A stretch of DNA of 21,358 nucleotides from Escherichia coli (GTDB taxonomy: Bacteria; Pseudomonadota; Gammaproteobacteria; Enterobacterales; Enterobacteriaceae). The stretch is taken from NCBI RefSeq assembly GCF_003334765.1, contig NZ_QOWT01000048.1; one strand, written 5' to 3'. The position numbers were made by a program. This document shows positions 18,001 through 21,000 of the stretch, one piece after another. Numbering within the stretch: the stretch's first letter is position 1; every line of letters starts with the position of its first letter.

Positions 18001-21000
18001 ATCCCGATCTCTCACCATAAGAGTGGCGGTGATTATTAACCATAAAATAAAACGCCTACATCTTGAAAATTCTGCCTCCCCCCCAAGATCAAAAAAGATA
18101 CAACACGATAAGGTGAAAGTATGTCCAGAGCAGAATTACTGCGTGATATTGAAGCAATTATTTCTGGGGCAGGCTTTGAGCTAAGTAACTCAGAAGCTCC
18201 GATGACGTTTAAAAAAAATGTCAGTTATCCTGGTCTGATCGCGGGAAAGAATGAAATAGCCCACTTCCTGTTGTTCACTAATACCGGTACCGTTCAAATA
18301 ACGGCTAAATGGCAGGAAGTGAGTGGTACCGCAATAGAGAAGCTAGGCCACACAGTTCTTGATGCACAACACACACAACATCAGAGTTATTTCGTTGTCT
18401 GTGGCGGAGGAAAGCTGGTAACAAGAGCCATTGATTACTTAAACGCCCATCGAACATTAGCTCCTCGTCTTAGAGCAATGCAAGTAAAAGAACTGGAATC
18501 AGCATTGGAAGAAATCATCTAAGGCCCTACGGGGCTTTTTATGTCTGAAATTTCGAGCACCTCTCCTCGAAAGGTGTCACGTATTGCGTAGAAAATATTA
18601 GTTAATTGTGTGAATATTGGCCTATTCTGCCTTCCCTTCTTCCAGAATTTTATAAACCGTAGAGCGGGCTATACTTAACTGACGGGCAATTTCTGTTGCT
18701 CCTGTACCTTTCTGGTGCAACGCCAGCACAGAACCTCTGTCCACTGAGCGTTTACGGCCAAACTTAATACCTTTCATTTTTGCATCCTGTCGGCCTTCAT
18801 TTGTACGCTCCAGTATCCTCCGGCGTTCAGCTTGTGCCACTGCGGACAGAATGGTCACCACCATTTGTCCCATATCACCATCTGTACTGATCCCATCGTC
18901 AATAAATCTGACGGCGACGCCCTGAGCGTCAAATTCCTTTATCAGTTGGATCATATCGGCGGTATCGCGGCCAAGACGGTCGAGCTTCTTCACCAGAATG
19001 ACATCACCTTTTTCTACTTTTACCCGCAACAGATCCAACCCATCCCTGTCTGTAGAACTGCCGGATGCCTTATCGGTAAAGATACGGTTTGCTTTTACAC
19101 CTGCATCTTTGAGCGCTTTGATCTGAATATCGAGAGACTGCTGACTGGTTGATACCCGTGCGTAACCAAAAAGTCGCATAAAAATGTATCCTAAATCAAA
19201 TATCGGACAACTAGTGTCTGTTATAATAAAAAATCGATTTAATAGACACATTAACGGCACTGTTTTCATATGTCTGATAATTTATGATATATCAGACAGT
19301 GACTTCACTAACGTACGTTTTCGTTCCATTGGACTTCAGACCCCAGAATTTATTCGTACCAGCTATGGATACGTTACGGGCAGTGATTTTTCGCGCCAGA
19401 CAGCTATTTCTTTGCTGTCCGGTTAACAGCGGTCTTACGTACAGGTTGCCGAGCGCAAAATTTGTGCATTCCGGAAATTTCGGTGGTTGCGGCTTGGTAC
19501 CCCTTTTATTGTTACAGGAGGCTTGGGCTTGTCTGCTACCGGTCAGGACGGGAGGGACACCGGAATTTGAATCCGGTTAACTGAGCCGGACATACGGTAA
19601 ATAAGGAATGCAGGCAGAACGGGAAGCACTGCAGGATGAGACAGTAGTCTGGAAGTACATCAAAATTGCAACAATAGTACGCTATTGCGTGACGTAGATT
19701 CGTGACGTATAGTTACTACAGCTTATTTGTATATAACCACCATCAGGTACAAAATTATGTCTCCCGCACAAGCTAAACAAAAGCAGCATGAACGCTACGA
19801 AGCCGTAGCGGTGCAGGTTTTGCGTGGTCGTGCCGGTTACAAGCCTGCCGTGAAAAGCCGTTTCAGTAAGTCAGCCAATAGCAAATTCTCCCATACTATC
19901 GCTTTTGCCTGATCCTGAACTTTGAGGCACAATAAACCATCATTCGCTGATGGTTTTTTTATGCCAGTTCAAGACGTTATTCCCCCCTATGAGCAGATGT
20001 ATCTGCTAAATCAGCAGTTGATCTGCAACGCTGACCAGCTCAAACATGCCGTTATCACAGTTGGCGGCCAGGCTGTGCAATATTGGATATCCTATTATCA
20101 TGCACAATACGGCGACAGATTGCCTGATGAGCGTCTCACCACTTCTGTTGACTGCGACTACAGTGCCCGGAAAGATGATATTGCGGCTATAGCAAAAACG
20201 CTCAACGTGAAAACGTGGGAAAACAAAGACGGTCAGCCCCCATCCCTTGCGCAGTTTATGCTTATCGATCAGGACACACACGATATCAAACGGGATGATG
20301 GACGTTTATTTGCCGTACCGGATGCGCCTGACGAGCCAAATGTGGTGGATATTATCGATCGGCCCGGAGGCTTCGACCGTTCTGATTTTCTGGGGGAAAA
20401 GCTTTACCTGCATACAGCCCCGTTTTATGTAGAAGCAACCGGCCCCAGTATGCCTGAAATGAATGAAAAGGTAAGGGTGTTGAACCCTATCGCCTGTATG
20501 CGATCGCGCTTTAGCAATCTGATTGCCTTGCGCCGTGATGCTGAAATTGAAATTGCGCGAATTAACGCGCTCAAGATTCCGTGTTATTTCTTTCTCATCG
20601 AACAGTTTGATGAACAGCCGTTCAAAGTTGCTCGAGGAATCTTTATGGATTTATGGCGGCTCGCGAATGACGAAAGTTGTCTGCGCCATCAGACCTTCTG
20701 GCATAGTTGGCAGGGGCCACTTCTTGAAGGGCAACAAAGTAACAACATCACTCTGGTTGATGTATTGGAAGGCGTCCATGCATTCCTGGAAGGGCATCTT
20801 GATGACTTTGAAATACCTGAAGCCTTTGTCACCAAAGAATTACCGATAAAGCTCGCACAGTTGCGTGAACGCTGGGAGCGTTATGTGATACTCAATGCTG
20901 AATGGGCAGCAAGAGGGCGCAGGGGATTTGAACGTAATCACCGTGATGACTAGCCTCCTTTGAGCTGAAAGATTTGCGCATGTGCAAATCACCAGAGCAC

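Follow-up and report, generated by a model that had tools for sequence, protein, structure and literature searches.

A Tn3-family element without tnpA in Escherichia coli is probably a chimera of an ISEc63-type transposon and IS101

We analysed a stretch of 21,358 nucleotides from Escherichia coli (contig NZ_QOWT01000048.1, assembly GCF_003334765.1; hereafter, the window), in which an element bounded by two Tn3-family terminal inverted repeats (16048-19344; 3297 bp, or 1432 bp without the group II intron that it contains) carries three open reading frames (ORFs), including the resolvase gene tnpR, and no transposase gene tnpA. The gap between site I of the res site and the right terminal repeat is 8 bp. 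In our reading, to which we assign a probability of about 0.85, res abuts the repeat because the element is a chimera of an ISEc63-type transposon and the miniature element IS101, made by resolvase through res-by-res exchange at the site I crossover.

Parentage of the element and position of the junction

The palindromic sequences upstream of tnpR had been taken for res subsites in the first-pass annotation, and the alignments to known res sites that it proposed, with those of Tn1000 and Tn3, were positive. Across sites III and II and as far as the site I centre, 100 of 101 positions are identical to ISEc63 and 93 of 101 are identical to the res site of Tn1000 on the F plasmid; the palindromes, which had been placed at the right coordinates, thus belong to a res site of the canonical Tn3/gamma-delta type (19185-19298, 114 bp). 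This site begins 6 bp upstream of tnpR, has spacers of 5 bp (between sites III and II) and 22 bp (between sites II and I), and combines an adjoining serine resolvase gene, three TGTCYR-type subsites with fixed spacing, and a central AT. The res site of Tn3 likewise spans 114 bp and comprises three dimer sites (PMC2602789). The TGTCTG...CAGACA palindrome is perfect in site I, whereas sites II and III are not perfect palindromes. With at most one mismatch, this pattern has a single match in the window, compared to 0.06 expected from shuffled sequences (6 of 100 shuffles scored); by itself, the pattern is weak evidence for a res site, whereas the homology is strong evidence. A phmmer search of TnpR against PDB yielded full-length matches to the Tn3 resolvase (5cy1, E = 4e-103) and the gamma-delta resolvase (1gdt, E = 4e-91). 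Resolvase dimers would occupy subsites I, II and III, and strands would be exchanged at the central AT of site I. A promoter scan of 18500-19450 found no match to the sigma-70 consensus, an uninformative negative.

The DNA to the left of the crossover derives from ISEc63. Comparison of positions 18009-19285 to the ISEc63 copy in the IncN plasmid NZ_CP043186 shows 99.4% identity in a gapped alignment, and many plasmids match 18009-19300 at about 99%, with the match ending there. The copy in NZ_CP043186 is a complete Tn3-family element that sits inside IS26, with a GTGTT duplication at its ends, and consists of a left repeat, an ORF annotated as PD-(D/E)XK, tnpR, res, a tnpA gene encoding 1003 aa, and a right repeat; its length, 4473 bp, is the size given for ISEc63 (PMC8034096). 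At the left end of the window element, 92 of the 96 positions in 16048-16143 are identical to ISEc63, and 95 of 96 to a hybrid in the Salmonella plasmid NZ_CP017721 that is described below. What the window element has in common with ISEc63, a close relative of Tn1000/gamma-delta, is the passenger ORF (for which no NCBIfam match was found), tnpR, and the part of res that ends at the site I centre. It differs from ISEc63 in lacking tnpA, the right half of the ISEc63 site I and the ISEc63 right repeat, and in containing the intron; an autonomous ISEc63 has its own tnpA and matching left and right repeats, a combination that is not found in 16048-19344. Past the crossover, identity to ISEc63 at the corresponding offset falls to 45% over 59 bp.

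These 59 bp derive from IS101. Their order is GATATATCAGACA, then GTGACTTC, then the terminal repeat, a Tn3-family repeat that runs from its outer end at 19344, with GGGG outward, next to the flank AGAAT. A search with 19283-19349 recovered the same 59 bp in hundreds of plasmids, and in the 4 records inspected, they are the right-hand end of an element of 209 bp that has two Tn3-type repeats but lacks an ORF. This repeat-bounded element is IS101, of which the pSC101 copy lies at NC_002056 2024-2232. When 19286-19344 is compared to five IS101 copies, 56-57 of the 59 bases agree, and two of these copies have exactly the same 38-bp repeat (38/38). In a multiple alignment, the interior of IS101 aligns with gamma-delta-family res sites over its entire length, in the order repeat, sites III-II-I, repeat, and its site I lies 8 bp from its right repeat. 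The first-pass annotation had suggested a search for natural small elements with res beside a repeat; such elements exist, and IS101 is exactly that. The central dinucleotide of the IS101 site I varies among copies: the pSC101 copy has TC, three others have TT, and the copy in NZ_CP022280 has AT. IS101 is reported to have a functional res site that works with Tn1000/Tn3 resolvase, to form cointegrates that are resolved when Tn1000 is present, and to be mobilised in trans by the Tn1000 transposase (PMC13367494, PMC4133298). The pSC101 copy reportedly resolves only poorly with Tn3/Tn1000 resolvase (PMC4133298); the polymorphism in the centre of site I could be the reason. As a separate observation, a solitary right repeat of the ISEc63/Tn1000 type lies at 4409-4446 in the enterotoxigenic E. 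coli plasmid p557 (NC_014233.1), approximately 440 bp from an IS101 copy, and may be another remnant of interplay between ISEc63 and IS101.

The terminal repeat that the first-pass annotation described next to res is real and has a partner at the other end of the element, with which it pairs over 36 nt (92% complementary in an inverted-repeat search). The absence of tnpA is likewise borne out: a tblastn search with the ISEc63 TnpA found no match in the window, nor in the whole of the related plasmid 55989p (NC_011752), one of the pAA-type virulence plasmids of enteroaggregative E. coli to which window positions 18000-20000 correspond (99.9% identity for 55989p and 100% for NZ_KY706108). The same annotation offered a precise deletion of tnpA as an explanation, which here would mean a single ISEc63/Tn1000-type transposon whose own res came to lie beside its own right repeat. 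Such a deletion is consistent with the lack of tnpA and with a right repeat of the same general Tn3-subgroup type (33/38 positions identical to the ISEc63 right repeat), but not with the identity of the DNA in between: the 21 bp from the centre of site I to the repeat match the half-site and spacer of IS101 at 19-20 of 21 positions and do not match the 3' end of the ISEc63 tnpA, the repeat itself is IS101-identical, and divergence from ISEc63 starts exactly at the crossover point. We consider a deletion within one transposon very improbable, the least probable of the explanations that we weighed. In the alignment, ISEc63-specific bases end at position 11 of site I and those specific to IS101 begin at position 16; the hybrid junction reads GATAATTTWTGATATATCAKACAG (Table 1).

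Two further arrangements were tried and rejected. The Tn21-type order (repeat-res-tnpR-tnpA) followed by loss of a downstream tnpA does not apply because the DNA downstream of tnpR is collinear with ISEc63, and an insertion of the res-hunter (Tn5053) type is contradicted by the repeat, which is of the Tn3 type and part of IS101.

Under the chimera reading, an ISEc63-type transposon would initially have resided in an IS66-family gene (flank TACCA), and an IS101-ended element elsewhere (flank AGAAT), and resolvase would have exchanged strands between the site I centres of the two. Most likely, the two res sites were direct repeats on one plasmid, and resolvase would have deleted what lay between them: tnpA, the right repeat of ISEc63 and everything as far as the IS101 copy. 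In the alternative route, which we consider less likely than deletion, the two would have fused and the reciprocal junction would have been lost later. The product would be a repeat-bounded element without tnpA that keeps tnpR and a hybrid res site. Mismatched flanks (TACCA and AGAAT) are expected under this scenario because the two ends stem from separate insertions. In the hybrid site I, the halves TGTCTGATAATTT and TGTCTGATATATC pair as an inverted repeat at 10 of 13 positions, which makes the site more palindromic than the native one; judging by its sequence, it should still bind resolvase, and the hybrid res may be active today. A break in homology at the AT of site I has previously been read as resolvase exchange between transposons (bioRxiv 10.1101/848275).

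Several observations weigh against this scenario. A PLSDB search with a synthetic query composed of IS101 and the window flank gave no match covering at least 80% of it, and no intact IS101 at the AGAAT site; as no ancestral plasmid of this kind was found, we infer the state before recombination. A scan of 55989p found no reciprocal product, only two known Tn3-type repeats, and no other IS101 pieces or TnpA fragments. Because just 59 bp of the right parent remain, this parent could be any element with an IS101-type end, not necessarily the 209-bp IS101. Finally, the TT or TC at the site I centre of some IS101 copies should hinder exchange with an AT-centred res site; the IS101 partner must have had AT, as the NZ_CP022280 copy does.

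Table 1. Features of the repeat-bounded element, in window coordinates
Feature	Position	Strand	Remarks
Left terminal inverted repeat, 38 bp, ISEc63 type	16048-16085	+	GGGGGCTGAGGGCCAATGGAACGAAAACGTACGTTAAG; left flank TACCA within IS66-family gene
Group II intron	16144-18008	+	Rfam RF02001 137 bits, RF01998 54 bits; RF00029 domains 5/6 end exactly at 18008
ISEc63 passenger ORF, 133 aa	18121-18522	+	Public annotation: PD-(D/E)XK nuclease superfamily protein
tnpR, intact serine resolvase, 185 aa	18622-19179	-	Ser10 present; ORF start at 19179
res subsite III	19185-19209		25 bp, TGTATC...CGGACA; identical to site III of Tn1000 and ISEc63
res subsite II	19215-19248		34 bp, TGTCTG...TAGACA; 1 mismatch to ISEc63, 1 to Tn1000
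res subsite I, hybrid	19271-19298		28 bp, TGTCTGATAATTT-AT-GATATATCAGACA
Site I, left half	19271-19283		ISEc63-derived
Site I, centre	19284-19285		AT crossover dinucleotide
Site I, right half	19286-19298		IS101-derived
Parentage switch, ISEc63 to IS101	19282-19285		TTAT; includes central AT of site I
IS101-derived right end	19286-19344	-	Half-site 19286-19298, 8-bp spacer 19299-19306, 38-bp repeat 19307-19344

Recurrence of the junction on other plasmids

The junction is not confined to the window. Among 5426 complete E. coli genomes, 29 contain it in some form; among the matches listed, about 20 have the ISEc63 form (98.7-100% identity) and 9 represent the Tn2 type or some other variant. The Salmonella plasmid NZ_CP017721 carries an ISEc63::IS101 hybrid without the intron and with other flanks. 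Compared to the window, its IS101 part differs at 4 of 59 positions and its ISEc63 part at 10 of 1278 (Fisher p = 0.002), and this significantly greater divergence of the IS101 part indicates a different IS101 partner. In pAA plasmids of the pFORC43 type, an IS101 half and right flank identical to those of the window adjoin blaTEM-1, tnpR and the left part of res from a Tn2-type transposon; the presence of a Tn2 junction at the same half-site and the same plasmid position suggests a further exchange at this site. The IncHI2 plasmid pMCR_915_E1 and the IncFII plasmid pBA92_2 contain hybrids of a blaTEM transposon and IS101 in other contexts, with TT at the centre of site I in both.

The reciprocal junction was identified as well. 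In CP124997 and NZ_KY093013, IS101 sequence extends from its left repeat through sites III and II into site I, where, after the left half, Tn2 takes over with the right half of its own site I and the beginning of tnpA. When the Tn2 halves from both kinds of hybrid are rejoined, they yield an intact Tn2 res site that is found at at least 99% identity in 3376 plasmids (100% in 4 of the 4 matches listed, including pC15-1a). The pentamer CTCCC flanks both the IS101 right end in pMCR_915_E1 (NZ_MT929285.1, ~6095-6160) and the IS101 left end in CP124997 (CP124997.1 5001-5210), and both of these ends adjoin mob-sul2-strAB DNA. Given this common flank and context, a single IS101 insertion appears to have been split by exchange with the res site of Tn2, and it looks as though an IS101-bearing segment of a small plasmid was spliced into the Tn2 res by res-by-res recombination. 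A search for the reciprocal junction beside the pMCR_915_E1 hybrid meets an IS26 that truncates the region.

These hybrids bear on whether resolvase was the agent of the exchange. The two parents share TTAT at the junction, and illegitimate recombination can use such microhomology, so that the element could, in principle, have arisen by homologous or microhomology-mediated recombination without any involvement of resolvase. However, RecA-dependent exchange needs far more than 4 bases, no fewer than five hybrids involving ISEc63, Tn2 and another blaTEM transposon, along with varied IS101 copies, switch at the same position of site I, and both reciprocal products occur. Moreover, in the TT-centred hybrids, the switch falls between positions 13 and 14 of site I, which is a position of resolvase cleavage in the gamma-delta system. 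That one homologous position recurs with several partners, and that reciprocal products of both kinds exist, favours site-specific recombination over microhomology, and we therefore judge a resolvase-independent origin to be improbable, albeit slightly less so than a deletion of tnpA within one transposon.

Mobility, related elements and the group II intron

The first-pass annotation also raised the possibility that the element is a res-plus-repeat arrangement that can be mobilised in trans. This is a property of the IS101 parent; the chimera itself has neither 5-bp duplications nor a transposase of its own. No 5-bp direct repeats were found around the window element or around four other hybrids, and the four pAA-lineage copies that we examined share the same right flank and site, as do 15 PLSDB records, which are those that match a query including the 5-bp flank. 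That the chimera is an active non-autonomous transposon which arrived as a unit, mobilised by a transposase of the Tn1000/ISEc63 type, would be in line with its two inverted Tn3-subgroup repeats, with the reported mobilisation of IS101, which has the same right repeat, by the Tn1000 transposase (PMC4133298, PMC13367494), and with the transposition of the analogous element TIME-RES (PMC4133298). The lack of direct repeats, the shared flank, and the lack of any Tn3-family transposase on 55989p argue against it, and we give arrival by transposition little credence, although mobilisation of the chimera in trans is possible.

TIME-RES from Pseudomonas sp. is the nearest analogue described (Szuplewska et al. 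2014, PMC4133298). It is a hybrid of a TIME element and Tn5563 that has been called a portable resolution system and transposes at 7.8e-5 with 5-bp duplications (PMC4133298). Both TIME-RES and the window element are non-autonomous, have Tn3-family repeats, combine a TIME element with the tnpR-res of a full transposon, and contain no transposase; structurally, the window element has everything expected of a TIME-RES-like element, that is, two Tn3-family repeats, tnpR and res, one TIME-derived end and no tnpA. In contrast, TIME-RES belongs to the Tn5044/Tn5563-type subgroup, encodes a resolvase of 309 aa, has two TIME-like ends, and was captured while transposing, with a 5-bp duplication, whereas there are no signs of transposition as a unit in our case, with no direct repeats at five hybrids and the examined pAA-lineage copies at one site. 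Furthermore, the junction of the window element can be placed at the site I crossover.

The other comparisons are to the parents and to whole transposons. IS101 (TIME-IS101, 209 bp, pSC101) supplies the same right end and naturally has res beside its repeat, but only one end of the window element is IS101, the rest (left repeat, ORF, tnpR, sites III and II, and half of site I) being ISEc63. TIME elements have a size of 50-500 bp, no ORFs, two Tn3-family repeats and a 5-bp target duplication, whereas the window element has 3297 bp, three ORFs and different flanks. Exchanges at site I between transposons (such as Tn5501/TnTsp1 and Tn5501.12/Tn4662a) show the same break in homology at the AT of subsite I and have been read as resolvase-mediated swaps of whole transposon arms (bioRxiv 10.1101/848275). 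In those exchanges, both partners are full transposons and the product is autonomous; the window element, in contrast, has a miniature element as one of its parents and has lost tnpA.

The group II intron is complete and is a later insertion, separate from the junction between res and the repeat. It is missing from the ISEc63 copy and from the Salmonella hybrid, in which the counterparts of positions 16143 and 18009 are adjacent. The insertion point lies inside the ISEc63-derived arm, directly 3' of aaagcccgtgggggcttttttatg, a hairpin that resembles a terminator; class C introns typically insert after terminators. The intron ORF (16560-17912) encodes an intact reverse transcriptase/maturase of 450 aa (TIGR04416, 424 bits). 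In 55989p (NC_011752.1 1774-3591, compared to window positions 16122-16776), the 5' part of the intron is replaced by approximately 1.8 kb of other DNA with IS66-family genes, and the element there measures 4460 bp, compared to 3297 bp in the window, which thus does not stem from 55989p itself.

The window also contains other repeats. A 42-nt direct repeat with 88% identity links 9444-9485 to 17936-17977, and because the second copy falls in domains 5/6 of the intron, the first is probably what remains of the 3' end of a further intron copy. Long direct repeats join 3412-3663 to 15306-15547 (~90% identity, ~11.9 kb apart) and 1-156 to 9574-9730 (93-99% identity, ~9.6 kb apart); the latter resemble IS3-family ends.

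Implications for Tn3-family transposons on plasmids

The ingredients of this analysis, that is, gamma-delta-type res, IS101 with its res site, the exchange of arms at site I, and TIME-RES, are already known, and the mechanisms involved are textbook; the gain lies in bookkeeping and in the documented recurrence, and not in a new principle. Neither ISEc63::IS101 nor Tn2::IS101 chimeras turned up in the literature that could be searched, the coverage of which is incomplete, nor was a description found there of a route of transposon decay or resistance-gene assembly through the IS101 res site. For annotation, the finding means that genes labelled "recombinase family protein" with a nearby repeat, such as this one, should be understood as transposon/IS101 chimeras rather than as intact transposons or as plasmid resolution systems whose origin is unknown.

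More tentatively, and with odds that we put well below even, the res site of IS101 might be a recurrent docking site, in clinical Enterobacteriaceae plasmids, for the resolvases of ISEc63, Tn2 and related transposons. If so, docking would yield repeat-bounded tnpR-res(-blaTEM) cassettes without a transposase, which might still be mobilisable in trans, and would also fuse IS101-bearing DNA, such as the mob-sul2-strAB segment, into Tn2. The chimera reading explains, to the base pair, why a virulence plasmid of enteroaggregative E. coli has an orphan resolvase gene whose res site adjoins a transposon end, and it would mean that a miniature element of 209 bp can strip Tn3-family transposons of their transposase, or splice foreign DNA into them, by means of their own resolvase.

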